DNA of 64,000 bases, taken from assembly GCA_905178155.1 (NCBI GenBank), contig CAJINV010000020.1:1178001-1242000 (forward strand). Reading direction: 5' to 3'. The position numbers and the translations under genes were made by a program. The DNA comes from Amoebophrya sp. A120 (taxonomy: Eukaryota; Protista; Dinoflagellata). This document shows positions 1,445 to 30,873 of the stretch, piece after piece (positions within the stretch are counted from its first letter, which is position 1; each line of letters opens with the position of its first letter). The notes beneath the pieces were generated by a model. That model searched no databases. It was not told the DNA's origin and saw nothing but the letters and a program-made list of their open reading frames with translations.

Positions 1445-4254
1445 ACAAAACTTGCGTTCTTCACTTCTGCTATAACATTTCTCTAGCTATTAGTAAGCCC
1501 AACTTTTATGGATGCTTCTGCACTACTGGCTGCTGTATTGGTTTTGTACCGCTGGTGCTGGGTTTGTATCCTTCAAAAATCGTTCCGCAATTAACGAACG
1601 ATTTTCACTTCCGAAAACGAAAACGACACGACAATCAAAAACGAAACACGATTTGGGTCGACTCTGGGCGGGCGCCACGACATGATCCCTCGGATGGCGC
1701 TCCGAGCAGGAGCAGAAGACTGCGCTTTTCATTGTAACGCCCGCACTAGTACTTTTTACCGAACGAAAACTAAGGTTACGCATGGCATGAGCCAATGAAT
1801 ACGGTGCATTGAAGACTCCATGATGCCGCTTCATATTCTTCATATTCTTGCAGTGTCGGCATTGTTTGCACTAGAGCAGCTGCGCAGCCGCAGGTGGGTG
1901 CTCCCAAGTGGCCGGCCTGAGTGGCGGTCGTTGTGTGCGACGCACGGCATGCACGACCATCCACCTAAACCCGGGTCCGTCCTCGTTGTAGCGTTCAACT
2001 TTAGAGCATAGATAGCGTATGTCGACCACGCCATGTTTGTTCGATAATTTCGATGCACTTTATTTCCTAGCGTTTTCCTTGCATGAAGGACTCTCGCCTA
2101 TCCCCGCGGCCCGGTAGTGCTTTACTTTTTCCCCCGTCTTGGTGCTTCGCGGTCGGATTCCGGTCGACCTTCCACGGCCGCGTAGCGTTGCTCCAGCTGC
2201 GTTTCGAGCTCCTTCTGCGCATCTGTTTGCGACTTCACGAGCTTCTCGACTTGCGTGGTGAGCTATCCAGCATGCAGTCCTTGCCCTCAACAACTTTAGG
2301 TTCGCCACTCGAGATGAAACTCATGTTGACAGTTTACAACCTACGTAAACAAATCGAATATCAGACACGTTTGTGCCTCAAAATCATGCAAGCTGCGACG
2401 GAACAGGCACTTCATCTTCACTCATAAACAGTATTGCAGACAACTACAAGAACTAAAAGGGTGCTACAAGTTGCGTCGTGCTGTGTGGGCAAGATATTTC
2501 AAACCGATACATCTCCCATGGTATAGTCGCGTAACTGCGGCTCCTCTTCGCGCAATCCCGTCCAGGCTGGCTCCCCATCCACATGGAACATGTTCTGTTG
2601 GTCGGAGGGATAGAAATATGCAGATCAACTTGTTGCTTTTAACATTTGCACAACACTTTCAGCATGTGTATCTGAACACGCATTCAGCAGAGTACGCGCA
2701 ACCACAATGACGAGAATGAACATCAGCGTATTGTTCTTCTTGTTGCTCTTGTTGATTGAGACGTAGTAGTACAACCAGAGCGAAAATATACATGAAATGT
2801 ACTCCTGTACCAGTATCGCCGCGAATTTCTGACACTCGAACGCATCCGGCGCTTCTCGTTCAGGAGCTCCTTCATCTTGCTTGCGTTATGAAAGGGCTGA
2901 AACCGAAAGCAACCAATGCTGTTTTTCGACGCAAAGAACAACAGCCACGCTGCCATGTTCCGATGTTTCCGCAAAATTAGAATGATGCCCACGACGCCAA
3001 TTCGTCATTGTTGTACTTCTACCCGTTCTTTTTCGTGCAATATACCATCGTATACCGCACTTTGGACGATCGGAACTTGCGAAAAAGTGCGTAATTGCAT
3101 CGATTTTTTCACTCCGTATGCACCTTGCACCGATGACATCCGGATCGGACTTGGTACTTCCACCGTACTCGACTAGACCCATGTTAGCCATGTTAGCATG
3201 CAGCTGCTTCATTATGGTAGTATACAAAGGGAAAGAAGATTTGTGATGCTCTGATGCGTACCATCGGAGACCAAAAAACAATCTCGAAAAACATCATGAA
3301 AAACACACACGGCTGCGCACCTGGACGCACCAAAGGATCTCCTGGATAGAGGCCGAAGTCAGTGCGCTGCAAAATAAACGTGGCTCATGATGATCTTAGG
3401 CATCTTTATTGTTCCTTCCCTTCGATACTTTTTCGACAGAGGGTCATCGAGTGACATTATCCTGGTCGTTCCGCCGGTGCCTTCGTTACGGTAATGGGAA
3501 AAGCTGAACGTATATGGTTGGTACGAGTAGAAGGTGGTGTCTTCCGCCTTTTTAACCTTTGAGGTCCCTGTATGGTATGTAAAATCACCCTCCGCTTTGC
3601 GCCCGTTGATGTGAATGCCGTGTAAGCACCTACAACTGTATCCCCATGCTTTCTTGTTCTGTCCTCACCCAGGTTTGATCATCCGACAACTTGCTGCAGC
3701 TGAGGATGATTTTTTTACATAGGATACGACTTCACCATTTCCAGAATGTCCCGATGATTCCGGCCAACCATGCTGGGAATGTACACTGGGCCAGGAGCGT
3801 AAAACGGAAACGCGGTGTATACTATTCAAATTTAGCATTACCGTACACGTAGAAGAAAGCGGCATCATAGCGACACTGCATGATATGCGGCGCGTCATGT
3901 GACTGCAACTACGTTAGCATCAACTGCAACTTCATCCAAAAAGACCAAAACGCTCACTGTTCTTTTCATCCACTTTGGTGACCGCCTCCCTTTATTCGCG
4001 CTTCTGCAGCTATGCACTGCGTTAGTGTTGCACGCAAGGGTAAGTCTAAGTGTACGATAAATCAACATTTCTTGCACATGCATATATCGCGCTCAAAATG
4101 TCTTTGATAAAAATTGTCTTTTTTCTGTTCAACTTCCCTTTTGGGGTTCCCGCCGTCGTCCTCAGCGATAAGAGAAGTACATGAGAAAGCCCAACTTCGT
4201 CCCCATATCCCAGACAATTTTAATGCATGTGCTTCCAGCTGCTCCATCCTGCAT

Positions 4255-7200
4255 TCATTTCTTTTCATTAACAACTCGACTGGACGACAGTGAGAAAGCA
4301 AGTTGTTTATGAGGACTCTGCCCATGTTTGCAGCGCTGGCGAATGTTGATCATACGCAGCGCTATCGACACAGAAACAAGCCTTCCAAGCAGTTCCAGCT
4401 TTCGGCGCTGCTGATGAACAACTACTTTTACATCAATAAAAACTCGACCCTTGGGCAGCGCAGAGCGGGACGACGAGTTTGAAGTTGTTTCAAAATCAAT
4501 TCTCATAACATGACTGGTTGCGCGGTAGGACAGGCCCGGGCACTGCGGGATATTCATTCCGGTGAGACGCACTTTAAACTCTTGGCAGGCCAACCTGATC
4601 CGCCTGGACACATTCTCATCTCCGAGATGCGTGGCACAGTCGCTGAGGGTCTGTTCCCAAGTTGACAAGTCGCGGAGCTTGCCCTTATTCCCTGAAAATT
4701 AACCATCCCCATCCACTTTTTGCATGACAAGCACAGACTTTCCTGCATGTTTTGCGTGACAAATTGGATGGGGATGGTTAATTGTTGTCGTGGAGAAGAG
4801 GTTCGTAAGTTATTTTGCTGAGCGACCGCACAAGCTCAGTACCCGTCACACACACGCGAGATCTTAGATCGTATTTTCCCACGAGGAATAGATCTTTTGG
4901 TAGGACCTGTGTATTCTAGGCATGTAGAACATATGGAGCACTGGCTACAAACCTGTAGTTTGTGCGCGTAGTGTCCACGTGTGAAACGGGTAGTGGCTTG
5001 GACGATTTATACAAATCGGGAGAGGGAGCTATCTATGGTTTTTGATATACGAAAACTGACCGAGTGTGGCGAACACAAGCCCAGAGCCAACACGTTTGGT
5101 GTGGGTGGGTGGGTTTTCAAAATAAAGTGTGAGTGTGGTGACCGGATGCTCACAGCCCCGACTTACGAACTACCATAGACAACTCCCACAATTGACGATC
5201 AACTATTTCCTTACGAAAACCTCAGATCTCATAATTGTTGTCGTAGAGAAGAGGTTCGTAAGTTATTTTGCTGAGCGACCGCACAAGCTCAGAACCCGTC
5301 ACACACACACGAGATCTTAGATCGTATTTTCCCACGAGGAATAGATCTTTTGGTAGGACCTGTGTACTCTAGGCATGTAGAACATATGGAGCACTGGCTA
5401 CAAACCTGTAGTTTGTGCGCTAGTTCCAAGGTATCCCAGAATAAAATGTGTGAAGGCAATCAAAGTGTGTACGGCTTCTCATAAATTGCAACATCTGTTC
5501 CTTGTCGAAAGGCAACGTCTACAGCTTTCGCAACGACTGCGCAATAGTCTTTTGTGGCACCGGCCCAGGAGCCTTGGCCGATTTTAAGCGGGATTGCGAC
5601 GGTGTCGAATTTGCTACGTGATAAAATGAAGTCGCAAAGTGCATTTTTGAATCTATACAGTCGGGCTTCTGCTGAATCGTCCTCAGTAAAGGCCTCTTCT
5701 GGTACAACGTCTGTAGGACGAGGAATTCTCGTTCCTGGGGATGTAGGCGCCCCTGGCCATACCATCGCGTAAATGTTTACTACTCGATTTATCAATTCCC
5801 ATTGTCCTAGTGGTTTTGCGGAGTATGGTTCGGAGTAGCGGTTGGCCAGAGGAAATCTTGCAAATAACTGCGCTGCTAATCCTTTAGGTTTGCAAGGGAC
5901 ACAGCATGTTATATGTACTATGTAATGCTCCTTGGCGTCACAAATGTCCTTGATTCTAAGTCTACTTCTGGCTAACTCAGGAAATTGGCGGAAGTAAGGC
6001 TTTTGTAGAATTTTTGTAATTTGTGAGCCTATCTCTGTTTTTTCTCTATCTATTCCCCAAAAGTGCAACGACACAGACGACAGCAAAACCCAGTCTTCCT
6101 CTGCTCCAAAGACCAGCGGGCTATGTGCTGTGCAAAACACTTTTGCTCCCTTCTTGTAGGTGCAGACTCCGGTAAAATTCGCCGCAAGACTGTAGAGCAT
6201 GGGGCTGATCATGGGCAGCATCAGTGCGAAGCGCGGTCTCTGTGCCATCGGGATTTTCATGAAATTCGACAAGAAGCGGGCGGCTACTACTGCAAGTTGT
6301 ATTGGTGGGAACCACCACGATCGTTTCTCGTAGAACAGGTCGAAGTTATCAAATGGATGACTGTTCGCGCAGTAGTATTCTGCGAACCGGTGGCTGTGTT
6401 GATCTGCAAAACAATCGACCTCGAGGCCTGGGAAATGCCGCATCACCATGCTCCATGACCGCTTACACAGAATTTTGCTGGGAAGGGGGTCTTTGAACGC
6501 GAACAAGTGGGCTTCGTGACGTGACAAAGCGTCCGCGATGATGTTCTCCTCACCAGCGATTTTTCCTGCTATTATCTCCGTGCCTGAGGCGGTAGCGAAA
6601 GCGGTGAGGTCGCGCGTGACTTTCTTCAGAATCGTTGTTGACGTGGAACCCTTGTTCGTCGTGCGTTTCGCGGTGGGGTTGTCTGTCTTGATTAACACCG
6701 CCTTCTTGTGAAAAAAGGCTTCCCCAAGCTTCTCTCGCGCGGCCTCCAACACATGAAGCACTGCCAAGGACTCCAATTCATTGATGCTGGCGGACTCTGT
6801 AGTAGCGAAGAGTGCATACTTTGATTGCGTTATCGAGAAAAAATTGGGCGTGCGCGTGGTGGACCTAGTCCAGGGGAGAGTAGGCCAGACGGACGGGTAG
6901 CTACCCCGAACTTGCTGGTAGTGAGTGGCGACCATACTAGGCGAAAGGGGCGTCCCCCATACCACCGACGCGGCTCTGCACGTAGGGGCAAAGGGAAAAC
7001 AGGGTAGCCAGAATATGGGTTGCTAAACACGTCAACTCGGGCGAAAAAGTGAAAATTCATATTCTTTGTAGTTTTTGACTACAGACAAATATATACCTGG
7101 AGCGCTGTCATCGAAGTCGCCCGCAAAGTACTGGTCTGACACTGTGCCGCCCCAGCCTCTGTTGCGTCTTTGGTCGCAATCCTTGGTGTCTCCTTTTGCT

Positions 7201-10200
7201 GCGTCCATGTAAACGCCTATAAACATGTCGCTACTTAAGGATGCAAAAAAGGCTTTTCCAAAGGCGAGCACTTCGCGTGACCAAATAAACGTTTGTTCTC
7301 CGTTGTAGAACATCTGCCTCGCGTGGTCCTCTTGCAGCAAATCTTCCCAGAGGTCCAAGTCGTCGAACACCGACTCGCTGATTGTCACCTGTGGGCTGAA
7401 CTGCTTGCTCAGCTTCGCCCACTGCTTCGGCGCTCCCGACTGTACCAGCACACGACTAAGCTCGTCCAGGGGACCTCTGGGGTGGATGAGTGCGCACGAT
7501 CCAAGCTTACCTTTGATGCTTGCGACGTCACGTGCCTTCGCTTCGTTATTCCTGCCTTTTTGCTTGAATTCCCTCACGGCTTTAAGGTGCTCTTCCCTGC
7601 GTGCTGGGTCCAGGATGATGTTGTACACTCTCGGGTCGGTGTTGAAGACGTTGCCTAGCCAGGGGAAGCTTGTGGACGGCTGGACTAGCTTCGATTCTTT
7701 GTGGTGGATTTTGATGCCCATCTTGGTCAAAATGTACACCGCTCTTTCCAGGTCAAACTTTGCTTTGTCGTAGTTCGGCCGTCCGTTCACTGGGTTGGTG
7801 ATGAAGCGAACATCATCCACGTAGTCGAGATATGGCGACGTTGCGCCGTTTCGCGCCACCGCGGCTAGGAAGGCCTTCACGAAGAAGTCACTTTCTTGTA
7901 TGCAAAGAAAAAAATCAGTGCTCTGTGTGATGCTGGACCTGGTCATGCAAAGGACAGGGCACTGATTTTTTTGCGATACCACCAGGAGCCGGTCCTATGC
8001 TAAATGGGCAATATAAATGCCCACCTTTCTGTGGTGTGGCTTCTAAATTTATTCCAAGCATCCTGCGGACGCGGGTATGTACTAGCCAGTGACCAAAGGA
8101 ATCTTTGAAATCAACCCCGCTGCCTAGTGAATTCGGCTTCAAGTGCAAGAACATGTCCCAGTACGTCTTGTAGTCAACTTCCGTGGAAAAAATCGACTGG
8201 TTGATGAGCGCCCATTCGGAACTATAATCGCTGATGACTCTGATCTTGTCGTCGCGTTGGAAAAGCAAATTTCCTGGCACACAAGTCAGGCCCGGAGGGT
8301 AGTCACAGAACTGGGCTTGTTCTCCCGCCTCGTTTTCCTGGGTTTTGACGTCGTACAAAATTATTTTCTTGTCCTCGAAGAACCGCTTGAACTCGCCGTT
8401 GTACACTTCCGGGTGCTGCTTGGCTGCTGGGTAGTTTTCGCACACGACGGGGTCAAGGTGTTCTGCGATCTGCTTGAACTTTATGCCGGTACATGCTTTT
8501 CTGAGTGCTTCTGGTGCGAGGCCGTAGCGGACGCATTCTGCTGGGTTGATGGTCAGACCTTCAAAGGCTTGATCATCCTCTGCTTTTCGCCATCTATCGT
8601 CTGGGCCATCTTGCTTCGCCAGCAGCGGCCTGACTTCTTCTCTCGTGATCGGTGCGCCTTCTTTGCGATAGTCATCAATCGAATACGGTGACACTGGCGC
8701 GAAGGCGTACGGGTCACCGTAGACGTTGGCTGGCGCCACCAGGCGGGAGAGGTCGATCTCGTCAATTTCATGCTGATAATGCTTTGGCGGCTTTGCTGGC
8801 TGCGGGAGATGCTGATCCCAGACTGCGGCGGGTGGCTGCGGCTTGAAATTCAGCCTGGGGCTTTCCCAGCACTCGTTGTACTGCCGCTCTGTATCCTTTT
8901 CGACCACTTTTCTCGTGGTGCCTCGTGCCGGAATGTGCACTTCTGGCAGCCTGCCTATTTGCACACCGCAAAACGATTTCTCATCGCGTTTTTGCTTCTT
9001 CGCGGCTCGACGATCGGCTTGCGCGTGTACTCTGGCTAGGGCTGCGGATCTCCCTATCTCGTAGCCGCAAAACATGGCTACCTCGAACACGATGCGAGGC
9101 ATCTAGAAGGGGTTTCGCATTATTAATCCTGTGTCTGGTCTATAAACAAAAAAGGAGTCTCTCTTTCTTCGTTCGTGCTCAATAATTGCGAGAATATTGG
9201 ACCTGCTTAGACAACATTGCGCGTCGGCGCATGCATCTCTGAGGTCTTGACGCACGCGCCCGCGAGCGACATCCTCGGGAGAAAATAGCCACGCATTTTT
9301 GTTTATCCAGTTAGTTTGAATTGTACATAATTGCTTATCAGAGCAAAGCGCACGCTGTGCTCTTAAGTTTCTATCGCTCCTGTGAGTGTTTTCCTGGTAG
9401 CGCCTTTCCTCTCTCGGCAAGCGCCTGATCAACTCTTGTGCTACTTGATACATCTCCTCATCAGCCTAAATGTGAATTGAAGAACATGACTGTGATGCGT
9501 AAAATGCGACAAGAAGAAAGAGTTTTGCGGAATAGAGACGACGACGATGAACAAACGAACTTGATAAGAATGCGGTCTTTTCTGATTGCCTGCATTTTTT
9601 TCATCGGGTGACTCAACTTTATCGCTCTTTGTGTATCGAAAAAGGATACTCAAGAGAATATTTTTTCAACAAAGATTCAAAGTGATGCTCACGATCGTTT
9701 TTGTTCAGTCGATGTGTGGGCGCAACACAGGTTCTTGGGGGCTCACAATCTCCTCATCAGAGCTCTCACTGCTCACATCAGCTTCGTTGTCGGACGAATG
9801 GTGGCTCGGTGGCAGGCTGCCTTCCCTGTGGTGAGATTTTTTGATGCGGGTCGCATGAGAAGTCGGCATGTGTGATGTGATTTTTTTGTGATATCCTGAT
9901 GCAAAATCATGTTGATCAAGAATTGCGATAAAGAAAAAACAAAACAACACACAAAAATATTGAGTACGGCTCTGGGTTTAATTCCAGGCATCGCACTACT
10001 GCCCGTCCGATGGCTCGTCCATGAGCATTAAAAAAGTTCCTCGCGGCGATCTGTGCTCCGACCAATCTTCCCACGCACCTGAATTAGTCATCATTGGTTG
10101 ATGGGTACGACGACTCGCTGGAGGAGTCTCTGGTTTTGTTTTTCAGATGCTCCGGGAGATCCCGCGGGTGCAGCAATTCCAGCAGCATTTTGTCACTCAA

Positions 10201-13200
10201 CCGGGCTAATTCTTTTCCTTCTTTCCGCAGGTTAAGCTCGAACATCCGGATTTTCTTGAGCTTCGTCTTTTCTAAGTTGAAGATCTTGGCGATTTCCGCC
10301 GGCGGGGCGTCGCGATGCTCGCGGTACATTGTTACTGCTGTGAGCGCGAAATTGCGGGTCTGCAACAAAGAACTCCACTTCTTTCCTTGCATCGTCTCGC
10401 TTTGAGCCGGATAGTGCCAAATTTCACTTAAATGGCTACGGACACTGTCCATCGCGCACGCCAGCGCTTCCGCGAGTTTCCCTTGGCAAGCCTGCCGAGA
10501 AGCAATTGCTTCCAAACAATCCAACAAAGTCACGCACGTGGAACGTAACTTGTCGGGGTCGGAGGATTTGGAGGCAATGAGGTTTTTGGACATGCACCAG
10601 CGGAAACCAGTGATGACTTCCATCAGCTGTTTCGAATTTTGTTCAGATTTTCCTAAGTCCTTGATGTTCATCAACATTGACTTCGCCTGCCGGTCTACCG
10701 GCTGTTTGACGAAGTAATCGATATGCTCGAGATTCATCCTAAGTCTGACTATCAAAAAGCTGATCGTGGCAAAGGTCCCTGTGGATGAAAAAAAGGCAAG
10801 GCACTAAAAGAGGCATGGGGTGACAGCTGTACTAGCTGTTTCTGTGCTCCAATTTTTTTGATCGTATCGTCGTGCCCCATTTGATCTGGGCTTTTACAGG
10901 GCGGCAAAAAATGCCCGTGCGCAGGGTGGGCCGTGCTCTAGGCTTTTTTCCCTCCAGGAGCCGGGGGCTACCCCAGAGCATATGGATCACGTGTGTGGGC
11001 GCTCTAGAGAATGGCACGGGAGCGTCCTCCATACCACTTACTGCGGCTCTGACATGTATGACAAATTGAAAGTCGGGTAGCCAGAATATGGGGTGCTAAA
11101 TACATCAATTCGGGTAAATTGTCAATAACAATAGAACCGGCAGCGTTCGGCTTTCTGCGCCACCAAGTATGCCACGCTCGCACACAGGAGGGAATAACCG
11201 TTGATGAGGCCGAGTTCGATCAGCATGTACAGAATCAAAACTCTTCCCGCGGACGTTGAGTAGAGCTTAATGATGTAGCACCAGTGCTGCGCGGACCGGT
11301 AAGTGCGCATGAACGATTCAAAGTCAAAACGACTGTCGTCGTAAGCGGCTCGTGCTAACAGTGCAGGCGCATTGTGCAGGCGTTGCACCAGAATCCAGCA
11401 CTTCTGTACGAAAATGCGCGTGACATAGGCCCAAAAGCGCCAGCCCGAGAGGTGCATCAACGGTCGTTCCATCTTGTTATGATTTTTGCTAATACTTAGT
11501 CTATCATTCGTCAAGGATTTTTGCTCTCGTGCAGTCGCTCGAGCAGTGAAGACGAGAAGGAAGGACGAAAAAGCGGTAGAAGAACAGAGCGAGACAAGAA
11601 TGTCCATGCTGGGCGTGGGCATCAGGGTGTGATTCCTTTTGTGTGGCGAGTGTTAAACTACGCTGTACAGATTTTCGCCACAGTTCTGAATGAAGTCCAG
11701 TACTTTCCCGCACACCGCCATGTCACAATTGCCCTCGCCTGCGTGAGCGAAAAGCCTCGGGCAGAGTTCTTGAAAGCTCGAAAGTGAGATTTTTCCCCAG
11801 GCTATTTTCTCAATGCAAGCTGTAAACTTGATCGCGTCGTCGTCGTGTATGAAGGACGCATGTGCGCTGTCGAGATTCCTGAGGGCTAAGACACTGTTGT
11901 AATCATCTATGGCTTTGCTCTCGTGCATATTCACCATGTTCCTGAGCTCTGTGCTGGAAGTGGGTGCATAGTGGATATCTAAACAGTAGGAATTTCTCCA
12001 GCCGCCCTGGTGATATGCTAATCTGCGTGAGGCGTCGTGGGCAATAAAATGCTTTGCCCCACCTTTGCGGAGTGAGATCGGCTTCTTTGGAGCTACATCC
12101 GGCAAGGCCGTTTCGAAGAATGTTTTCACATCTTTGCGAATGCCGTCCTTGCTACTCTTCTGCCCGCCCCTATTTCTAATGTTAGCGCTACCGATTACGA
12201 AAAAATAAGCGTCGTTTGGCGACCACTTTCTGCCAATAACAGCGTCGAAGAATGCCCTGCCGAACCTTTGGCAAGCTCCTAAGAGGGTCGTGAAGTATGA
12301 TGGTGCCCAGGCTTCTGAGCCCTGAGACAACTGGTCGCTTTTTGCGTGCGCTACAAAAGTTGCAAATTGGGGCGAGATGCCGCTTGTGCATGTTACAGTA
12401 ACATCCTTCGCCCTCAGCTCGCGCAATTCGTCGCTTCTTCTTACACAGAAGAAAGCGACAATTACCATCGTCAGCTTCTGCAACCGCATTACTAAACTGA
12501 TGTCTGATGGTGACATGTTGAGAACTGCACGCTTGGACCATTCCTTGTCTGCCTTGAGGAGGTGTCCATGGTGTTGTGACCAGTGATCCCATTCTGCGTG
12601 GTACGCATCCAGCATCTCGGTCGTGGAGGGACACCATTTTGCGTCGAGCGGGGCACCATGGTGTGCTTCTTTCTTGAGCCTGAGAATGTTAACATTATGG
12701 TATATCCATATGGAAATGATTATATGGCGCAAATAATTGTGGCAGTAGTAAGAAAAAAATTCTCGAGCAGTAAGAAAGAGCATTACCCTTTCCACAGCTT
12801 CTGGAAAAAGGCTCCTCTGTTCTTCGTCGTGTACCCACTGAGCTCTACCCGGGAGGCATTGAAGGCGTTCAATGCGGCGCTTAGCTGCAGGAAGGCGCCC
12901 CACCGTATCCGGTTCGTCTCTTTGTTTTTGTAGGCTTTATGAATCTCGTGGACGTGGGCAAAAGCTACGAGCATGAGGGTGGCCCCGGCATCGGAGGTTA
13001 TGGGCCATAAAACGAACCCAAGTTCTTTTGCTACTGCTGGCACAACTTTTGACAAAATTGCCGAGTATCCTTTCGAAGTGCCATCCGTGATGGACGCACT
13101 CGCGTGCTCTGCGGTGGCTGCGGTCAGGAGTTCGGCAGCCTGGTTCGATAGCGGGAACGCGTCGAATATGCCGTTGCTCGACGCTTTGATCTCGAAATCG

Positions 13201-16200
13201 AAAGTCACTCCGTCTTCACAGAATGGCTTGCACTTTACAACGGCTTTTCCTTTCGCTTGCTGGTAAAAATGTAGCACGCTCGCGATCGACGGAGTCGGCG
13301 TTGAGAGAATGACGTTGCCCGGTCTGGAAATGAGTGCAACTGAATCAGACGTGGCATCGCTCCCGGACGACGACGACGAAGCCATGCTGAAGTTGACTGA
13401 TAAAGACGATGCTGAACTTGACGAACTGCTGCTGCTGACAGGCTTGAAATTCAATAATGCGTCGAGCGGCTTTTTAACTTCTTCTTTCCGTTTCTCCATG
13501 TGCTCGTGGATGCCCGCCAAACGAAAAGCAGAGGAAGCGAATTTGTGCTGGCTGCTTGGTGAAGACACCGCCGTTACAAAACCTGAATCCGGGATGATTT
13601 CGCTGAACTCATCAAGTGCCTGCTCATGCCAGTCTTCCACTTGCACCAGCTCAGTTTCTACGGCGTCCATGATGGTATTGTAATAATCTGGGGCTTTTCG
13701 CTTTGATGGCTGTGATGGTCTTGCTGCGTCACTCAACTGTGGGTGGCTTTTTGTGGTTGACTTCTTGTCGGCTCCTGCTAGCTCCTTCAGGGAGGCTGCA
13801 ACTGCTGCTTGCTCTGCCAGTTTTTGTAGCTCGCGCCGCAGGACGTCCTCGCCCAGGGCTTCGTGACACGCATTATTTGCAATGAACTTACTCATTATTG
13901 TATTTACAACCTATTCGCACTAAAGAAGCGGCAGGACGTAAAAGTACGAAGCTGAATCGTAAGCGGCTTATCGCTCTGGTCAGAAATCACTCAGAGTGTA
14001 GCGTCATGTCGCTGATGCGCTCTGGAGATCTCAACAAGCAGCTGCTGCGTAAAAGGACAAAAAAGACGCAAAACAAGAAAAAAGGAAGAACACTGCGACC
14101 TGCTCGTAACCTCCTGTGCAGATTTGCGGGCTGGTGCTGAGACTTCTATTTCATCATTTAAAAAATTCGTAAGGAACGTTTTGCAGACTGATTATTGTCC
14201 GAACGGGTTGTTATACGCTGGAGCTGAAGCTTTTCCACCATTGTTTTTCTGTCGCTTCAAACCGGCCCCCTTCCCGCCCTGATTGTTAAACTGTGGGGCC
14301 TTTGGGAAGGGACGCAGCATATTACCACCTAGACCTTGCTGCTGGCTTCCATGCTGCTGGAACTGCTGGCTCCCCTTGCCTCCTCCTTTGAGGGGACAGT
14401 CTTTGTTCCAGTGCGCCTCACCACCACATTGCGGCTTTGGGCACTTGATGCAGCAGATGTTTCCCGCTGCAGCGCACGCTTTCAAGCCCAGCTGGCCGCC
14501 CTTGTGGTGGTTGCCCGGTCCTTTGCCTGCCATGATGCAGCTGACGCAGCTCTGCGTGTGGGACATCCAGGTAGACAGAATCGCGGGACTCTTCGCATTC
14601 GCAGCCTCCAGTGCACCTAGGCCGCCCGCGGTCGTTTTGGGTGCGTTATTCATGATGGCGTTGATTTCGTCGCACGCAATTTTGTTCTTCTGCTGCTCGG
14701 AGCTTGCACCACCACCGGGGTGCTGTCCCAAGTCCGGGACTCGATTTTTGTTGTTGCCGCCGATCATAGACATGAGATTTCCACCCAGTTGCATCATGCG
14801 TTGAATGATATTTGGTTTACACAAATTATCACACGCTGCCGCTGTCATGGCCGCCGCGTATTCTAAATTGTAAAATCCCTCGTCGGTTGGAGATGTGGTA
14901 TACTTGTTTTTGAGCTGGGCCGCGAATTCTTTGATGAAGAAATATCTGAGGAGAGTTTGTTTTTATCATTACTTAGCAAAACAGCTCACTCATGCGTGAA
15001 TATGCAAAAGGCATGGCAGAATACAAAGGATGAACAAACGATGAGTGAGAGTCTGGAAGCATCGGACAAAACAAACAGGATATACGTACACTTGGTAATT
15101 GTAATTCAGCGGTAGCTTCTTGGGCGCGATCGAGTTTTTGGTCAACGCGGCTGATTTTCGTTCGTAGTATGTCACTGGCCATAAGAAATACCGGGCCAGG
15201 ATAGTCCACTCTTCGTTCGGGAAGAGGTCTATCAGTGTCTGGAGGTATTGCCTCAACTCGTACAAGGAACCCGCCGGGGGCAAGATCATGTTCTTCCAAC
15301 TGCGCTTGGGAATATCTTGCTGGTTGGTACTGTCGATGAAGCTCTGTGAGATCAAAATGTAGAATCAAAATAAACCGATATGCAACATCCACATCATCAC
15401 ATGACCAGAAAAAACAAGATATGCCTGTGCTGCCGCGTTGGTGGTTGCCAGGTGCACGGCGAACAACTTCATCATGAACTTGCCTTGGTCTTTGTCGATT
15501 TTCTGAGATCTTCTGACCGGGGGGCGCTTGAGAGTTTCGTAGTACTTGGCCTTCAGGTCGATCGGTGTGGCCGCGAAGGTTGCGCACCACGGGTGGGCTG
15601 CAGTCACTTGCTGAGTGACGTCTGCTGTGCCCGCTCGCTGATCGATCCTGTCCTTGACTTTCGAGGAGTCCGAGAGTGTCTTCGTTCTTTTGCAGGCTTT
15701 GCATTTCCCAACTTTTGTCTGGAAATCGTAGCTGCCGAACTCGTCGATTAGGATGACCCCTCCAATCGTCTTGTAGCAGTTGGAGCAAATGCAGGAAAAT
15801 GCTGCACAGCTTGCTTCCGAGCAAAACAACTCACGATCGGCATCGGCGATCGTGCCGGAGAAGCAGATAACGCATCTTGGAGACATCGTGAGCGAATGCT
15901 GGTTGCACTCAAGTAAAGCTGTACATTGCACATAAATACAAATGAAGAGGTAGGAGGATCGTGTTCTGTGTGACGACGACAGGAAGACGAAAAAGGAAAG
16001 AAAAAATAAAAAAGCATGTGCACAGGACGTCATAAAAGTAGAACGCAACGCGATCATAAAACAACGAAAAACGCGAGCTATCACAAATGCTTTTTTGAAT
16101 TGGACTTTTTCGTAAATGAGCAAACTTTTGCGCTCAGAAAGACCTACTAGCGTCAGCTCGTATCACAAGACATGTTCGTCTGAAATCTAAAGAGCTCTGA

Positions 16201-19200
16201 TCCTAGCTTTCGGCTAGTTCTCGTTTTGCAACTGCAGGCGCTGTTCATTGCGCTGCAGCGGCTCATTGAAAGTATCGTTTGTCATGTTCGACGCCACGGA
16301 TCTTTCAGATAACAATTTCACCGCACCGGGTTCGGTGGGGGCTTGTCCTAAGAACCAGTCGGCGAAGGCCGGGCTCCAGGCCTTGGCGGAGGCGAACTGT
16401 GGCAAGAAAATAGTCGGAAACTCCCAGAGTAACGTCTTGAATCTCTGGGACGGCTTTGCCCCCATCGCCAGGCGACTCACCGTTTCCTGAAAGAATTGAT
16501 GAAAATGCACATTACAAAGCAATGCAAGAGAAAAAGCATCAGTATGTCATGCATAAGATACAATGAAACGCAACTAATACCAGCAGAGCGCTTGTAGTTC
16601 GCAACTTAGATTCTCGCAGTTCCTGGCTGTAGGCCATGCAGTTGGCTCTGGCAATTTGCGGGTCTTGGTGCTCATCATCCATGATGGTGAACGCACGCGG
16701 GCCTGCTGCTTGTACGCGCTGAGCATGAGCTTCGACGAGGTTGGCGACCGTCTCCAAAGACAGGCTTCCGCACACCAACGCACACCAGACGGGCGTGTGC
16801 AACGAAATGTCGTTGGCACACGAGGAGAGGACACGCTGCATCTGCAGTAGATCGGCAGCGGATAACGACAGAGCCATCTTGTTCTGTGTCCAAACACGAA
16901 TTTCTGTCTTCTCGCCTGCAGGGCAGAGGGAAAGTAATTCGCGGAGATCCTTTTTCAAACGGGAAACTACAAGCAGTGAACCGGATGAAAGCAGGGGCAT
17001 CGCGTGGTCTCGGTAACAGCGCGATGCAATAACTAACCAAAGTCACGCAAGATCAACGAAGTTGACACGTAACACAGATCTTGGAGAAATACGCGACAGT
17101 GATCCAGACAGGAGCCAAGAACACAGGCGCGTTGCAGACTTATGCATGGCGCGCACAAGGTGCGCTCCAATGACAGTGGCAGCTGCAGCCGAAGGCTACC
17201 ATGGTCCATAACGAACCGATGGCTTTCTGACATGTTATCAGAGATTATCGGAACTGTGTGTGCATCGCGGATGTGCAATGCCCAACAGGACCTTAATCGA
17301 CGACGAAGGAACCGAGACGACGAAAGGCGACGAAAAGCTGCTGGTGTGCAGATTTCGAACGCGAAAAGGAGCTGCCACAATGCCGGGCGACAAGGTCGCC
17401 GTGCGAATGTGTCATTCGCTTTTCAAAATAAAGCGTGAGTGTGGTGACCGGATGCTCACAGCCCCGACTTACGAACTACCATAGACAACTCCCACAATTG
17501 ACGATCAACTATTTCCTTACGAAAACCTCAGATCTCATAATTTTCTGTGAATAACCCTTCCCGCCCTGAAACTTGCACGTCCAATTTTCCTGGATGGTTG
17601 CAGCAATACCGGACTCGTCTGGCGCTCCTCCTGTTGCAGCCCATGCGGCCGGCGATGGCCGTGCCTCGAGTGTACTACTACTGCTGGGTTCATCTGACTC
17701 CTCGTTCTTCTTATCGGATGGCTCCGTGTCGGTGTCGCTACCGCCCTTCTCCGGAGGTTCCCCGCCCTTCTCCGGTTCTTGTCCCGTGTCGCTACCACCA
17801 GCCGGGTTTGCTGCCGTGTCGCTCCCACCGGCCTCATCTTTTTCTGCCGTGTCCTTGCTCTCACCGGCCGCCTTGTTCTCCGGTTCTTGTTCCGTCGTCC
17901 TGGTTTTCGTTTTCTGTGGTGGCGGTAGAGCTGCAACTATACTTTCACCGCCAGGGACAAACGACTCGACGAAGCTTTCGAGCGCCCCGGCCAGCCCGCC
18001 GCTGCGCTTGTCCAGCAGACCGGGGAGGGAGTTCCAAAAGGCCGCGTTCGCCTCACCTGCCTTCTGCGCCTCGTGGAACAGAGGCTTTTCGAACCCGCCC
18101 TCCATGAAGGATTTCGCGTTTTCCTGCTGCGCTTCCTCGAACGCGCCCGTTTCCACCACTTCCACCATGTCACTGGCGCCGGGAAATGCGTCTGCGCTCG
18201 GCTTCTGGCTGTCCACAAAGATGACGTTGGTGATCTTATCCAGGTCCTCGTCGGGGTCAAATTCAGCGCTCGCAGAACTGGAAGGTGAACTGCTTGCACC
18301 AGAAGTTGTACCATCAGCTCCTGTCGAAGAGGAATCTTGTTCCACTGTAGAAGAACCTCCTCCTGCTGCACCCTTCGTCCACGGCGCAAAGTCCGCGGCG
18401 GACCGTCCCACGCCAACCGTTGCTCCGCCGCCGGCCCGCTTGGCGCTGAGCGCACGCACCACCGCGTCGGCCAGACGCTCCAGCTCCGGCACCGCGTGGT
18501 AGCCCATCTCCGCCTTCTCCCGGGCCCGCTGTGCACGCACCACCAGGCGGCCGGGAATCGCCCGGTGCCACACGGTGTCGTCGTCTGCTATGGCGTTCTC
18601 AAGTGGTAGTACATTCTCAACCGTTACATGAATTTGTGACGCAAGAATTGAAATAAAAGTGAAAGGGGGGAGCATTGCGCGTCTTGCATGACAGACTTGG
18701 TACAGATTAACAGCCTCCTTGGCCTTTCCAGAATTTGTCATGCTGAGCAGCTTAATCGTGTAGATGATAATGGTAGTTTTGCATGACAAATCACGTAACA
18801 CTAACAGTTGAGAATGTCACGTTTGAGAATCCCATATCTGCTACCGCGATTAGGCTCTGGTACCCAATCCGGAACCGTCCCGGGTCGTTTGCGGGCGGGG
18901 GTGCGGGCGCTTCGTCAGGGTCAGCTGCAAGTGTTTTTTTCAGTTCCTCTCTGGTTTGTATTCTAATTCCTTCCTGCACAGCGGAGGAGGAGGATGCTGC
19001 ACTGGAGCTGGCACTAGCAGCTGACGTCGCAGCAGCTGCACTGGAAGTGGAAGAAGATGAGCTACTTCCCTCAGCCTTCTCCTCCGCAGGTTTATTGTTC
19101 AATGCGTCCATCATGCTCTCGAAGGGATACGGCACCTTGTTCAAATCTTCGCTGTTTTTCTCCTGCCCGAGCTTGCGCAGTGCCCGCGTGACCACATACT

Positions 19201-22200
19201 TCGCGGGGTATTTCAGGTCGTAGGCCTCGCGTTTCCGCTATCCACAGAAAAAAACCCACCCACATCCATTGTTTGCATGACAAACACATGACTTGATACG
19301 TGTTTTGCATGACAAATTGGATGTGGATGGATCTTTTTCTGTGGATATCCGCACTAGCGGCTTTATCTTCGCGGCTGGAGGCTTAGGCTTCGCTGACGCG
19401 GCGCCTTCCGTCTCTTTCTTCGTCGACACCTGCACTGCACTGGTCGGCTCTAAGGCAGATCCCTTGGTAATGGGGCTGTTACTCCCGTTGACCCCGCAGA
19501 GAATGTTCCGGATCAGCAGCTTTTTGTTTTGCGGAATCGTGTCGGTGTTCCACCAGCGCTGCACTCTCGCGACGGCTTTGTCCATCCGTTCGTGCGGGAC
19601 CGCGCGCGGATCCAGGCGGATCTCCCGATCGCGGAAGATCGGGTCCGTCCAGATGGAGCGGAGCTGCGCGCCCTGGACGCGCTCCCGCTCCAGGTCCGGG
19701 TTGCTCGCGGCTGTGATAAGACTCCGCACGGTGTCCGGGCTCCACACGTTCGGGATTTCGCCGGTCGCCCCGTCCGGCTCGTACTGCTTTGTCAACTCCG
19801 AATTGGGTTGCGCCGGCCCGGCGGCCTGGGTTTCGCAGCGCTCCTTCCGCCGGGTGGGGTCCAGCTCCTGGTCGCGCCACCGGTAGATCCCTAAAGAGTC
19901 CTGGTAGAGTATGGGGCTCTCAAGCGTTACATTCTCAGCTGTTATGTGCTTTGTCATGCAAAATCACCATCAGAACCGACACGATCAAGCTGCTTCGCAT
20001 GGCAAATTCTCGAAGCGCCGGGCAGGCTGATAATCTGTGTCCAATCTGTCACGCAAGACGCGCAAGGGCAAGGTCCCCACCTTCACTTTTGCCATTCTTG
20101 CATCACAAATTTATGGAAACAGTTGAGAATGTAGCATGTGAGAACGCCATACAGAAGATCCCGTACCGGCTCGTGCCCTCGTCCTGGTGCTGCAGGTCCG
20201 TATCCTGTGCAAAAGTATCGCACTCGTATTGCAATCATGCACTACAAATCTTTTTCTTGAGGCAGATCAGCATTACAAATCTTATTTCTCATGCTGAGGA
20301 AATTTGTGATGCATTTATACCAGTACGATACTTTTGCACTTCATAGTCCGGGTGCTGCAGCAGCACGCCTGGCCGCCATAAACAAGACTTCTCGTTGCCC
20401 TCGGAGCTCAATACGTGCACCAGGTCTCCCGGCGCAAACTCGCCGGGCATCACCAGTCCGGGCTGCGCCCGCAGCGACAGCGCGTCTGGGAATCGCACGA
20501 CGCGGGGCTTCACGTCGCCCTGCGCCAGGTCTTTCTGCCGGATGTTAGCCGCGGCCTCGATTGCAGGGGGCGTAGCTGCCGCCTTGTTCTCTGCTCCAGC
20601 AACAGCAGTCTGGTGTTCTTGTTGGACCTGCAGTTCCTGCTTCTTCGTGGTTTCGGTTTCGCCCACTTCGACAGCAGAACTACTGCTGGAAGATGATTTT
20701 TTCCCTGCCGTCTTGAGGCTGCTGCAGCCGGGCACTTTGACTTGCCAATATTTTCGCTTCTTGCCGTCCTTGTCTCGACTGAAAACGTAGTCGAGGATGC
20801 CACGGAAATAGCCAAGGCAATTCGGTCTGGTTTTGTCGTTCAAGTATATCCGGACCTGATCCCCCGCAGTGAAATGGTCCCAAAATTGGAAGCATCCTGT
20901 GCAAAATTATCGCACTCATATCAAATGGTGCTAGTCTTCTTGCATTACCGATGATCTAGACTAGTTTTTTACCTGAAGCTGCGTGACAGATTACATTCTT
21001 CCTGTTGGAAAAATTTGTCATGCGATAACTTATACATAGTGATAGTAGTGCGACAGTTTATTTGCAATGCTTAGAAAGGCCCCGGGGACGCGTGCGAACT
21101 CGTCGATGGTGCGGAGGACGCGTCGCACGTCGGGCAGCTCGGTGGGAGCCGTACCGTCCGCCGCGGGCTCCAGTAACTCCAGGTCCTGCAGCGCCCCCCG
21201 CACTTCCCCGGGCAGCTGACATTCGTGGTAGTGGAACGGGTCCTGTCGGTTTTTCGCCATCCGCTGGCCGCGCTTGGCCAGGTCCCGCACCAGAAACACG
21301 TCCTGCAGGGAGAGCGCGTCCACCGTGCCGCTGACCAGAAAATTCAGCCCCGGTTCCTTGCGGCGGACGACGCGTTCGTTCTGCGCGGCGGACCCGTCGT
21401 TCAAAGCGGTCACCACCTCGTCGCCAGCGCCCATCGACCAGTCGTACTGCTTACGCCCGCCGCCCGCAGTCTCGGTGGCCGTCACCTTCGCGAGATACGC
21501 TGGGTCCTGGAGCAGCTCCTGCATTTTTTCCTCCGTAAACTTCTGCCGGGCCTGCCGCTCGTCCTCGGCAGACTGGATTTTGTCCGGATCCGCCCGGTCC
21601 TCCTCGGACGGGGCGATCGCCGACACGTCCTGCAGGTCCACGGGCGCCAGCGCCGCGAGCCGCATGCCCCGCACCTCGGACACATCCACCCAGCCGGGCT
21701 CCGCGAGCCGGCTGTAGTCGCCGCAGGTCTCGCGCAGCGCGCGGATCGCCCGGGAGTTCAGTCCGGGAAACTTCCCGAACTTCCCCGACACCTGCCAGCC
21801 GCCCAGCTGCCACATCACGGCGTCGACTTGCACCCGGTCCCCCATGGTGCTCTGCGCGGTCCGCCGCAGGCTGTCCCCGGCCTTCAGTTTGTAGATCTGG
21901 ACGCGGGCGTGAGGGTCCTCGGCGTTGGTCGTGTAGGACTCAAAGATCGGCACGTCGTTGCTCGCCACCTGAAAGAAGGGGTGGTGGAGGCTCCGCCGTT
22001 GCACGAAGTACTTCGGCACCGGGTGCGCGGCGGCGCCGTCCCCGCTGCTGAACGTGATGAAAAGCTTGCGGATGTCGTCCGCGCGCGTTTCGAGCAGGTC
22101 GCTCTCGGGCGTCTCAGCCTGCAAGACCCTTGCGCCTTTCTGCGCGGCCGCGACCAAACCTCCAGATCCGGTGCCTGCTCGTCTGGTGTTGAGCTGCAAT

Positions 22201-25124: not shown

Positions 25125-27652
25125 CTAGTCCTTCACGTTGGAGCATAATTCAATTCGCCCAATGGCCATGTCAAACAAGTGACTTGGATCGCGAGCGCGG
25201 CCGTCCCCGTACTCCCAATCTACACGCTTTGTCGCGCCGCGTCTGTACTCCCAATAGGTATTTGGCGTGTGGAAATGAAAGGTCAGTATCCCCCCGGTGT
25301 CCGCTAGCTTCTCGGTGGCTTTGGAAAACGAAGCGCCGCCGGGCACGTTCTCGTGGTGCACGTTTCTCACTTGCCCGAAGAACTTGCTTTCACGATCCGG
25401 CCCAACAAGGTTCCATTCGCCTCCGGACGCATCTTTCGTCTCGCCGACCCGGAGCGCGAAACTGGTTCGCTCGAGCTCCCCCTGCGGTAGAGGTTGTCCA
25501 GGAAGACCGTCAAAGCGAGCGTAGTAGGCGTTCGCGGCTTGTCGTTGTTTTGCTCCTGCTTTTCGTTCCGGAAAATAGTCACCGTCTACTTTGGATTTGG
25601 AGGTAGTGCTAGACGAGTCTGAAGAGTCGTAATGGTGCCACCTCGGGTCGAAGGGCAGCGATTTCATGTCAAACGGCATCTGGCCTTCCCGGGAAAACAG
25701 TTGTCGCCCGTCGTCCAGCGCCACCACCGTATTCAGGACGTGCGTGCGGCACTCCGCAGTCACGAGACCCACGTTGGTGTTTGGGCTGTACACATGGAAC
25801 TGGTGCTGTGTTGGTTCTTTAGTTCGTCCAGTACTTTTTTTCCGTGCGCTAGTAGAACTCGAGTCTTTATCTCCTCCTGTGGCATCATCTTCTCTTGAAG
25901 CCGGTCCTGCGTTTGCATTCTTCCCCCAGCAATTGATCTCCTTTTTCCGCCCCTCACCGCTCGGCTTGTGCACGAACTCTGTGCACTTTGGCGTGGCCGC
26001 GCACAGCTCCAGACACTGGTCCTGCGTGATGCCCGACCGCGCCTTGTGGTCCCCGGTGACCGCAGTTACTAAAGTTTCGTCCGGTACTAAACTGTCGCGC
26101 TGGTGCAGGACTGCGCACTTGTTTGTGCTTTCCTCGGGTAACCGTTCCTGCCGCGGCCACTTCCAGCCGCGGACCGGAGCCAGTTGATCGGGCACGTCGC
26201 GCATCAGAACCAGGCTGCTGACGCCCGCGGTCCAGCCCTGGGGGCCCTCGGTGACGATCTGGTAGGTCCAACAGGGCGGAATGGGCCCCGACGGGTCCCC
26301 CAGCCAGTCCTTCTCGTCGCAGTAGTAGTCTTTGCGCGGCCCGGGGTTGGGGGACATGTTGCCGTCGATAAAGTAGGCGTTGATCATGCAAACGTGCCCG
26401 GGTTCCTTTATAAAAAGAAAAAAACTGTGTAAGAAGTGTAGCTTTGTGTTGCAAACGATGCAAGACACTTACACCTGTCATGCTGGACATGCATCAGAGG
26501 CTCTTTTCGTACGTGTTTCCACGTACCAGCTACGCATAGCTGGTTTTCTGTGTCATGCAGAGAAAACTTGTCATGCTATTCCTTCAAGTTCAAGAAAGTT
26601 ACACCTACAATACACAGTTTTTTTCTTGGATATCCTTCCGCCCGCGATCAATCGTCAACTGCAGGGCCGTCCCCGGGGGGAACTTCCACCGCGTCAGCTT
26701 TTTCTGTGGCACCACGTCCGGCCCCGCCGGGTCGTCCCAGAAGGCCTCCTCGTCGGGGGTCGGCTGCCCGGGCGGGATATGGATGTGTCAGGATAATTGA
26801 AATCGACAAAGTTGAAATAACTTGCAATGCATAAAATGGATGAAAGTCCAAGTGGCGCATGACAAATTTGGGTAGAACCGAAATCCAGTTTGTCATGGTG
26901 TTTCGGTAAGGAAGACGCCTTTTGTCATGCTACTTTCGCAGTGCTCAGTTTCTACTCCTCAACAGGCCCACAATCTGCCTCGCTATCACTTGCCTACTCT
27001 GCAAGACAGGCGCTCTGAGGGCTGCAGTTTATGCATGGCAAACTATTTCAACTTTGACGATTTCAATCCTGACACTTCCATACGGGATCTTGGTCAGGTA
27101 AAATCCCTCGTGGTACATCGGCAGCCGGTCCCAACCGGGGCCGAACCGCACGTCCTGCCTGAGCCGGTTCACCCGGAACCCGGTCGTGCCGACTGTGATT
27201 GCGGGAAGATCCGACTCTTGTGAAGTAGAATTCCTCACCGGAACATCAATCTTTGTTCCCCAGGTTGTTTTCGATGTGTTCACATCCATCCGCTGTTTCC
27301 AAGTCACCAGGTACACCGGCGTGGGTTTGCCATCTTCCAGCATCCAAAAGCAAAACTTCGCGGGTGTGCACGAAGTGGCGGCGGGCAAGGCTGCCTGCTG
27401 CTCGGAACTACCGGTAGTGGGAGAACTTTTGGTAGTAGTTCTTGATGCGGTGTAGTTGAAGAAGCTATCATCGTTGGTGATATCCTCGATAACAAACGCG
27501 TTTGTTTCTCGTTTGTTACCCTCGTGTTCTTTGGCGCGAACGGCGTCCGTGCTGACCACTTCGCCTTTATTTTCATCGAGGTTTGTAGCACGGTCAGCGC
27601 TGGCGTATGCGTTCTGCAGGACGAGCAGCAACGAAATTTTTACCCGGACCAT
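25125..27652 (-). CDS. Secreted protein with PAN/apple-like motif (3 exons)
   Basis: Signal-like start MVRVKISLLLVLQNAYA; motif TQDQCLELCAATPKCTEFVH..C; exons join in frame across introners 26778-27082 and 26409-26632. Confidence 0.65.
26409..26632. mobile_element. Introner
   Basis: TIR aagaaaaaaactgtgta / tacacagtttttttctt; TSD tcctt; frame restored (GRK|EPGH). Confidence 0.8.
26778..27082. mobile_element. Introner, family 5 (GTGTCAGGATTGAAATCGTCAAAGTTGAAATA TIR)
   Basis: TIRs; TSD cggga; frame restored. Confidence 0.85.
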
Positions 27653-29358: not shown

Positions 29359-30873
29359 CTACGGCAGGTGTTCGTCTTCTGAGTCGAGGTCTTTGTTTCT
29401 GATTTCAGCAACAGCGTTCATCTCCGTGGGCAGTTTACAGTAGCCCAAGATGAGAAGGATGAATCCCGTGATGGTTAGGATGGGCATCCACATTTCGCAC
29501 AACCACAATGCTCCCGAGCCGAGTTGGAAGTTGAAGTCACCATCGATGTCCCCGCTCGCAAACTGTTGAATATCCTCCTTCGTCGGAATGTTTCCATATT
29601 TGGTCAGTAGGCTTGCATACAGGAAACCGGCGACGGCGCGGTAAAAGAAGAAATAGTCGGGGAAATCGATAATTGGCGGCGAGCCGTCGGCAGGGTAGAC
29701 CGGGGCCGGGGCGTTGGCCTGAATGCCGTACCAGACATTGTCATTTTCAGCATAGAACAACTGCGCCACGCGCGCCCACCGTAGCATGTGCAACACCCAT
29801 GCGGTAAACAGCATCGCGAGGGAGATAACGAGGAAAACGAGCAACCCTTTTCTCTTCACGATGCTTCCCTTTCTCAACATCGGCGTGCACTTTGCGAGCT
29901 GGAGTGCGAGCGCGAGGACAAACATGAGTACCACCTGGGCGACAGACACGGAAAACATGTTGGCGCCCGAGTCGGATATGGGAGTGTCAGGATTGAAATC
30001 GTCAAAGTTGAAATAGTTTGCGATGCATAAAATGCTAGATGCAAAGGGCCTGTCTTGCAGAGCAGGCAACTGAGGCCGATTATAAGCCTGTTTGGGGTGT
30101 GAGATAGAGCTGCTCAAATAGCATGACAGAAGCAGTCTTCTCTGCTCAAACAGCATGACAAATTGAATTTCCATGCTCCCAGCATTTGTGTTGCGCCACT
30201 TGCAAACTGGGTTCCAGCTTGTATCGCTTTTCTGCATCACAGATTATTTCAACTCTGACGATTTCAATCCTGACGCTTCCATATCGGAAAGAAAATTCGT
30301 AAACACGGTGGGGTCCAGGTTCTGTAAAAAGGTGGCAAAGTCCGCGAGAGCCTTTGGCACTGGGACGCCCGGCGGAAGCAGGTCGGGAAGGTTTTTCACG
30401 AACGTTGTTAGATCGGTGAGCAGTTTCGGCGTGTCCTTTGGACCCTTGTCCGCCGTTCCGTAGCCGTAGGCGAGGTACTTTACGAAGGAGTAGTTGAAAC
30501 TACTCTCCGTCTTGATAGCGTCGCGCATCCAGCCGGCCACGTGAGCGTCGTCCATCCGGGAGCCGATAAGCAACAACGTCAGGTACAGTAAGCCGAAAAG
30601 CCCCAGAAGACCTGAGGTGACATTCACCCCGACCCGCAGGAGAGTCTCCGAGGAAGTCTCGGGAGAGGAACGGGCTGCAGGAGCCGCTTCTTGCAGATAG
30701 ATCACCTTCTGCTTCTTGCGCTGCGGAACTAGAGTCGGCGTCGGGGCCTGACCCGCAGCATAATAACGAGAAGGGGCGGCAGGGTACTCGTCGGGAACGG
30801 AGTGGTAGTGCTGGGTGGCACCTCCAGTTATACTGAGCTGCGCTTTTTGGTTCGACATTTTTCGGTTTTTCAA
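29359..30873 (-). CDS. Multi-pass membrane protein (2 exons)
   Basis: Several hydrophobic segments; ORFs 30244-30873 and 29359-30240 join (NFLS|DSGANM) across an introner. Confidence 0.7.
29977..30283. mobile_element. Introner, family 5 (opposite orientation to 26778-27082)
   Basis: TIRs; TSD tcgga. Confidence 0.88.

Follow-up and report, generated by a model that had tools for sequence, protein, structure and literature searches.

A motif present twice in a split-direct-repeat retroelement of Amoebophrya sp. A120, and its possible role as a pseudoknotted signal on unspliced element RNA

Background

Retroelements are copied through RNA and are hence expected to lose introns, yet a 12.8-kb retroelement on the minus strand of contig CAJINV010000020.1 of the dinoflagellate Amoebophrya sp. 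A120 keeps several within its coding frames. The element lies in a stretch of 64,000 nucleotides (nt), called the window throughout, and coordinates are counted from its first letter. Intron retention is highly unusual among retroelements, has been noted for Penelope-like elements, and its significance was called unknown in a 2021 preprint (bioRxiv 10.1101/2021.04.23.441226). In the Amoebophrya lineage itself, U1 small nuclear RNA (snRNA) was not found and most introns are non-canonical (PMC7789003). The question raised by this locus is why introns persist in such an element, and whether anything within them is kept. Here we describe a motif that occurs twice in the element, at one place within an intron and at the other possibly so, and that changes less than its flanks between sister copies. 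We tentatively read it as a pseudoknotted signal that would select unspliced, full-length element RNA for export, packaging or reverse transcription, a possibility that we hold with less than even confidence.

Two copies of one motif

The repeat in two copies is genuine. An initial annotation of the window, made from the letters alone, had proposed both copies, their blocks and their coordinates (Table 1), and these are borne out by blastn within the window, which aligned 7041-6947 with 11114-11019 (80% over 97 nt, E 3e-17). A pair alignment gave identities of 36/40, 9/23, 28/33, 17/44, 8/8, 13/37 and 12/14 in successive segments, with segments at 85-100% identity interleaved with segments at 35-39%. 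Both copies lie in one orientation inside the retroelement, and beyond the motif edges the regions around them have only 5-10-nt matches in common. The linkers had been described as unrelated; the first one is 23 nt long and pyrimidine-rich in both copies, and two more fragments, read by eye, agree with this. From the two window copies we built a covariance model, which found no third copy in the 64-kb window (the next score was 10 bits), unlike the window's inverted-repeat inserts, which occur there several times.

Two features are confined to single copies. In copy 1 only, the crossing strand of the fold described below lies within a perfect 12-nt palindrome (6895-6906), a possible dimerisation site. 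In copy 2, positions 11055-11067 of the first linker differ by one change from an internal word of the window's introner-like repeats, a pattern that was set post hoc; copy 1 has no match to this word.

Predicted fold and folding strand

Our minus-strand model is pseudoknotted and has 36 pairs in eight helices, all of which can form in both copies (72 of 72 cells), with four double changes and one single change. It includes the helices originally claimed (CCAU/AUGG, UCUG/CAGA, GCCGC/GUGGU and GCUACCC/GGGUAGC), which pair in both copies, as does the variable-segment hairpin, built from different sequence in each (GUCC/GGAC versus GCUC/GAGC). Two parts had been overlooked: the helix that closes the fold, which has a bulged A and shows one double and one single change, and a short GACG hairpin with one double change. 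Block 7002-7041 supplies the 5' strand of this closing helix as well as those of helices A and B and of the pseudoknot. All changes are peripheral and fall in the closing helix, the GACG hairpin and the 3' hairpin. Pairing together with changes was equalled by 33 of 500 shuffles, and slid controls paired at 28-47%. In column shuffles that keep the conservation pattern, a 7-bp Watson-Crick helix arose in 8/1000, three double changes in 31/1000 and nine short helices in 60/1000, and the consensus energy was matched in 0/300.

The initial annotation held that G-U pairs favour the minus strand as the RNA, and this does not stand: the consensus fold of the plus strand is equally good (-36.65 versus -35.05 kcal/mol on the minus strand) and uses another long-range helix, which gains G-U pairs there. 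Shuffle tests disagree, the greedy shared-helix score favouring the plus strand (2/200 shuffles versus 114/200 on the minus strand) and the consensus energy favouring the minus strand (0/200 versus 6/200 on the plus strand); the changes in the closing helix also favour the minus strand. The plus strand is the would-be first cDNA strand. Since, in addition, amplification of DIRS-1 runs through single-stranded cDNA (PMC7192593), a fold in DNA is conceivable.

Introns around and between the copies

Copy 1 lies, as first claimed, in a frame-restoring intron inside RNase H: excision of 6797-7096 yields a single open frame through RNase H, and the related protein P0001 matches the two exons back to back (residues 1-190 and 196-388). 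Because P0001 aligns across the junction and the frame is restored, this intron (intron 1) is well supported by sequence. Its ends match each other over only 7 nt. The position of copy 2 is less definite. The boundaries 10779-11137, given for its intron by the initial annotation, do not connect in frame the two long open reading frames (ORFs; 176 and 239 amino acids) on either side; the GT-AG donor/acceptor pairs 10779-11129, 10760-11137, 10745-11137 and others do. One sister contig has a 1-nt deletion at 10788, which fits non-coding DNA. From these sequence features, copy 2 is possibly intronic, or else situated in an intergenic spacer between two genes; only about 15-23 nt of possible intron sequence lie upstream of it. 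When the motif is subtracted, intron 1 and the candidate intron around copy 2 keep about 100 and 150 nt, and the element's plain introns measure 107 and 142 nt. One of the latter kind, the motif-free GT-AG stretch 9826-9967, is absent from one sister contig (the letters between the ends of the joint, 9824-9967, were not read) and presents a case of intron presence/absence between young element copies. Removal of a further GT-AG intron (12680-12786) joins two ORFs, and splicing is apparently required for several element proteins. The RNA runs X4, X5 and X6 had no reads on 5300-14300, and X4, X7 and X8 had none on 6740-7160; as presence of the organism in these runs was not shown, the zero counts say nothing on expression.

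Other loci and sister copies

A DNA run (X1) at 80% likeness gave 13 contigs on 6740-7160. Summed depth was 445-526 over 6995-7024 compared with 64 over 6740-6979, and five of the contigs diverge into other sequence past 7048; this rise in depth and these other flanks place the 5' core of the motif at five or more additional loci. The sample behind X1 may be the one that also gave the window. Compared with the window, sister copies have changes at 2 of 198 places in the motif and, outside it in intron 1, at 7 of 102 together with a deletion of 2 nt (one-sided Fisher p 0.008; each variant was assigned to a contig through its depth value). Of the two changes in the motif, one converts a C-G pair of the closing helix to U-G on the minus strand. 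No joint across either motif region is listed in X1, unlike the motif-free 9826-9967. These comparisons indicate that selection acts on the motif within the element lineage, in which case the element would need it, whether in RNA that retains the intron or in the course of its removal.

The loose ends of X1 add letters at individual places, seen without their partner strands. By eye, one fragment (place 11093) has four of the five letters of the helix A 5' strand changed, with the letters either side kept, and in the fragments at 6996 and 6990 the CAGA that the copies have exactly 23 nt past the crossing strand is replaced by CGGA and UGGA, and the CCGC after it by CUCC; the fragments at 7002 and 7003 do not fit cleanly to that register. 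By eye, the X1 flanks past 7048 contain an A/T-run motif matching the other flank of copy 2 in reverse complement. This flank motif is of low complexity, with 21 one-mismatch matches in the window versus 9 expected, and in the window neither copy is bordered by a matching pair of arms. Diverged sister families of the retroelement, with related reverse transcriptase (RT) and RNase H, are suggested in the same genome by further loose ends at 7125 and 8288, and such families could host the other motif loci.

Comparison with known RNA families

The motif is uncatalogued as an RNA motif, in line with the initial annotation, which by eye could match it to no hammerhead, HDV, twister, small nucleolar RNA, tRNA or group I/II core. 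Searches of Rfam 15 gave no match at E <= 10 for 6790-7100 and one weak match (E 7.6), outside the motif, for 10775-11140; a scan of 3000-16000 gave six weak matches, none on either copy. Using consensus descriptors, we found no hammerhead, twister, hepatitis delta virus (HDV)-loop or group II domain V pattern on either strand of both regions; the minus strand was also free of group I R/S, C/D, Sm, A-box and B-box patterns, the only CTGA matches lying on the plus strand in the copy 2 region. ARAGORN reported no tRNA genes. On the plus strand both copies show GTGCG at the block edge (6850, 10917), like the GUGYG start of group II introns, and by eye AAC/AAT near the far edge, like their AY end, with boundaries chosen post hoc; by eye there is no EBS1 at a shared position, and the block has just 190 nt.

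Strict-pattern homolog scans returned 23 and 0 loci from viral contigs, 12 from metagenomes, 0 and 1 from prokaryote genomes and 0 from phages. None of these 36 matched the covariance model at E 0.01, and by eye 35 lacked the downstream blocks; diverged relatives would escape, because the patterns were strict. A literature search, in which most subscription journals fell outside coverage, found no description of such a motif. Its core words are absent from the supplements of PMC12130899 (12 of 14 files, cells up to 400 characters) and from that of PMC7789003 (1 of 1 file, text without figures); introner consensus sequences outside the searched text might contain it. Taken together, the motif is supported as new, conserved and low-copy, and the initial annotation's alternative of an ordinary repeat decaying genome-wide is disfavored by its low number, its restriction within the window to the two copies and its conservation between sister copies.

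Several specific candidates were tried and rejected. For a guide RNA directed at the element ends, pairing of the copy 2 variable segment with repeat B ranks 26th among 8482 windows and that of copy 1 478th, and the one linker that ranks 3rd does so through a UG-rich repeat. For a P1 helix of group I type, a pairing is possible at the 5' splice site of intron 1, and none at copy 2. RNase P CR-V, the signal recognition particle (SRP) Alu domain, U6, the dinoflagellate spliced leader, glmS and the loops of a dicistrovirus internal ribosome entry site (IRES) were each, by eye, confined to one copy, in the wrong order or too short, without Rfam support. An IRES-like role, raised in the initial annotation, fits copy 2 at best, since copy 1 sits midway through RNase H.

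Signal on unspliced RNA and its alternatives

How might a conserved fold serve an element from whose messages it would be spliced out? In the mechanism that we propose, splicing would produce the mRNA for RT-RNase H and remove the motif, while RNA that retains the introns would keep the fold, be bound by an element or host protein and then be copied. Motif-bearing introns would thereby survive repeated retrotransposition, and motif-free introns could be lost. The placement of the copies in non-coding interruptions fits such a signal, which would also account for the persistence of introns with the motif when one without it is absent from a sister contig. We count in its favor the location of both copies in the element in one orientation, with no third copy in 64 kb, and the lower rate of change in the motif than in its flanks. 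Pseudoknotted signals with a comparable task are on record: the MusD transport element (MTE) and the post-transcriptional element (PTE) of murine leukemia virus (MLV) act in the export of incompletely spliced retroelement RNA (PMC4588558). If unspliced RNA is indeed selected by the fold, the element illustrates how message and genome can be kept apart in a retroelement with many introns, and it offers a testable handle on intron retention in retroelements.

A number of observations weigh against this proposal. Two copies stand at unrelated sites, though one signal should suffice; the other loci are known from the 5' core; and a single contig skips the motif-free intron, which the element in the window may instead have gained. 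Helices A, B and C and the crossing helix amount to 20 pairs, which are invariant between both copies and, because they never vary, are uninformative on pairing. The pseudoknotted fold is about 18-23 kcal/mol worse than the single-sequence minimum, coaxial stacking left out, and neither copy beats shuffles as RNA on either strand (z 0.54, -0.70, 1.31 and -0.38) or when folded as DNA. The folding strand may moreover be the antisense one. Finally, P0001, P0002, P0004, P0007, P0008 and P0010 cross RNase H as single protein records, and since these relatives read through uninterrupted, an intron at the RNase H site does not appear to be general to the clade.

Selection on the motif would also follow if the fold aided the removal or processing of its own intron, as a splicing helper or as a new ribozyme (cleaving, branching or capping), the motif being conserved because RNase H is made only once the intron leaves; we consider this unlikely. 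A size of about 195 nt with invariant junction letters would suit it, as would introns that without the motif come near plain-intron sizes. The minus-strand helix order (A5', B5', Z5', B3', hairpin, A3', Z3', hairpin) is a crossing pattern of the GIR1 type (PMC2219692), and U1 snRNA was undetected in two Amoebophrya strains (PMC7789003). On the other hand, the motif has no Rfam match at E <= 10 and none of the known ribozyme patterns; by eye, a P4-P6 domain is missing, as is any bulged G-binding helix common to both copies; the element's other GT-AG introns need no such fold, and cleavage ahead of splicing would destroy the pol message. The bolder form, in which a catalytic RNA of a new class, built on a double-pseudoknot core, would excise, cap or re-insert its own GT-AG-bounded intron and would have colonised recombinase retroelements, appears distinctly improbable; if the fold were catalytic, a new ribozyme class would be present in a genus whose splicing is already unexplained. 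Nor is the motif likely to be a mobile insert of a small, non-autonomous kind, either introner-like or retroposed, which uses introns as safe sites and whose fold is kept for mobility. Flanks are unrelated at both copies and on five other contigs, the A/T-run flank motif resembles a terminal inverted repeat, RNase H relatives lack the interruption, and the genome is introner-rich (window inserts; PMC7789003, PMC12130899). A passenger would, however, be expected to decay, yet the motif is conserved between sister copies; its copy number is low, the flank motif is of low complexity, and arms match on both sides of no window copy.

Somewhat more doubtful is the idea that the element carries an independent small RNA gene, on either strand, whose product is released from the intron or transcribed from its own promoter. 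The 5' and 3' ends pair, six T directly follow both copies on the minus strand, and the size is suitable; but T runs are frequent in these introns, the minus strand has no C/D, Sm, A-box or B-box pattern, there is neither a tRNA nor an Rfam match, very little possible intron sequence lies upstream of copy 2, and the variable loops are not guides for the element ends. We regard it as very improbable that the motif is an old duplicated or repeated sequence without function, its pairings arising from chance plus a former inverted repeat. Invariant core pairs, unremarkable single-sequence folding and a minus-strand greedy helix score no better than shuffles are what such a sequence would give. Opposed to this are the alternation of blocks at 85-100% identity with segments at 35-39%, the four pair-keeping double changes, a consensus energy reached by none of the 300 shuffles, and a motif that changes less than its flanks.

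The host retroelement and its neighborhood

Repeats in the order A1 ... B1 A2 B2, together with RT and RNase H, place the element among split-direct-repeat retrotransposons (Table 1); because its terminal repeats are 97-99% alike, its insertion was recent. The RT exon has 26 relatives at E <= 0.001, of which P0009, P0010 and P0020 match RVT_1 (3 of 11 scanned), and 4 of the 16 RT relatives looked up are named Amoebophrya proteins, which together with the window's inverted-repeat inserts points to a genome of Amoebophrya type. The element's own RT and RNase H pieces matched no Pfam family. The same frame includes a presumed methyltransferase-like part, labelled by its motifs, and a further ORF is presumably tyrosine-recombinase-like, a label that goes back to motifs recognised by eye; the latter ORF had no Pfam match and no homolog in a protein search. 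Protein searches with the 3' part of RNase H and with the ORF downstream of copy 2 found no homolog, and the ORF upstream of copy 2 had no match in an Atlas search.

Table 1. Coordinates of the motif copies, introns, frames and repeats of the retroelement within the window
Feature	Position	Strand	Basis or remark
Motif copy 1	6849..7041	(-), element sense strand	blastn, pair alignment, pairing count
Motif copy 2	10916..11114	(-), element sense strand	blastn, pair alignment, pairing count
Best-conserved block of copy 1	7002..7041	(-)	36/40 letters same as copy 2; common to other loci
3' strand of 7-bp crossing helix, copy 1	6900..6906	(-)	pairs with 7002-7008; invariant
7-bp crossing helix, copy 2	10967-10973 with 11075-11081	(-)	invariant
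Intron 1 (GT-AG), inside RNase H, contains copy 1	6797..7096	(-)	frame restored; homolog P0001
Candidate GT-AG intron around copy 2	10779..11129	(-)	joins 176-aa and 239-aa ORFs in frame (aa, amino acids)
Motif-free GT-AG stretch absent from one sister contig	9826..9967	(-)	joint 9824-9967, run X1
GT-AG intron	12680-12786	(-)	removal joins upstream 375-aa ORF to recombinase-like ORF
RT, RNase H and presumed methyltransferase-like frame	5460..9102	(-)	broken by intron 1 and insert at ~7900-7975
Presumed tyrosine-recombinase-like ORF	11653..12936	(-)	joined in frame to upstream ORF via GT-AG intron 12680-12786
Split direct repeat A1	17420..17542	(-)	99.2% to 5114-5236
Split direct repeat B1	5232-5428	(-)	sequence self-comparison
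Split direct repeat A2	5114-5236	(-)	sequence self-comparison
Split direct repeat B2	4779..4977	(-)	97.0% to B1

Additional ORFs lie near the 5' end of the element (15365-17042), one of them cysteine-rich (15365-16162), with no Pfam match. The non-canonical insert with inverted repeats that interrupts the RT frame at ~7900-7975 appears to be an introner-like element nested in the retroelement. Elsewhere in the window, five inverted-repeat inserts of 240-260 nt (18581-18836, 19910-20158, 34351-34587, 38061-38304 and 48399-48636) are 69-78% alike and share a recurring internal word, and smaller related insert families occur at 4686-4777, 19239-19347, 41565-41932 and 50031-50246, and also at 26776-27082 and 29977-30285.

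Relation to known systems

The MusD MTE, the PTE of MLV and of xenotropic murine leukemia virus-related virus (XMRV), and the Rev response element (RRE) of human immunodeficiency virus (HIV) are likewise structured cis elements of retroelements with pseudoknots or long-range contacts (PMC4588558), and the likeness in acting on intron-retaining RNA is what we propose for the motif. It differs from them in being 200 nt long, present twice and placed in small spliceosomal-type introns of a protist recombinase retroelement, and has no sequence or Rfam match.

In size the motif is similar to the lariat-capping ribozyme GIR1. The predicted minus-strand fold, whose core pairs are invariant, would have a second helix running across a three-way junction, in the order of P15/P3/P8 with P7 in the double pseudoknot of GIR1 (PMC2219692). 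The motif lacks, however, a P4-P6 domain before the crossing helix and a G-binding pocket, lies outside any group I intron and has no Rfam match; and whereas J15/7 of GIR1 has 3 nt, about 55 nt separate A3' from the crossing helix, itself an unbroken 7 bp. With the introners of Amoebophrya the motif shares an intron-borne repeat in the same kind of genome and possible inverted-repeat arms at other loci (PMC7789003, PMC12130899). The introner hallmark is inverted repeats of 8-20 nt at the intron ends in many copies, whereas the ends of intron 1 match over 7 nt and the motif is low-copy (2 in 64 kb), sits in a GT-AG host intron and has an internal pseudoknot with double changes and no long terminal hairpin. 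As for the host, PAT-, Ngaro- and VIPER-like elements share the A1 ... B1 A2 B2 order, RT, RNase H and a recombinase-like ORF (PMC6681497), and what sets the present element apart from these is that it carries several introns within its coding frames.

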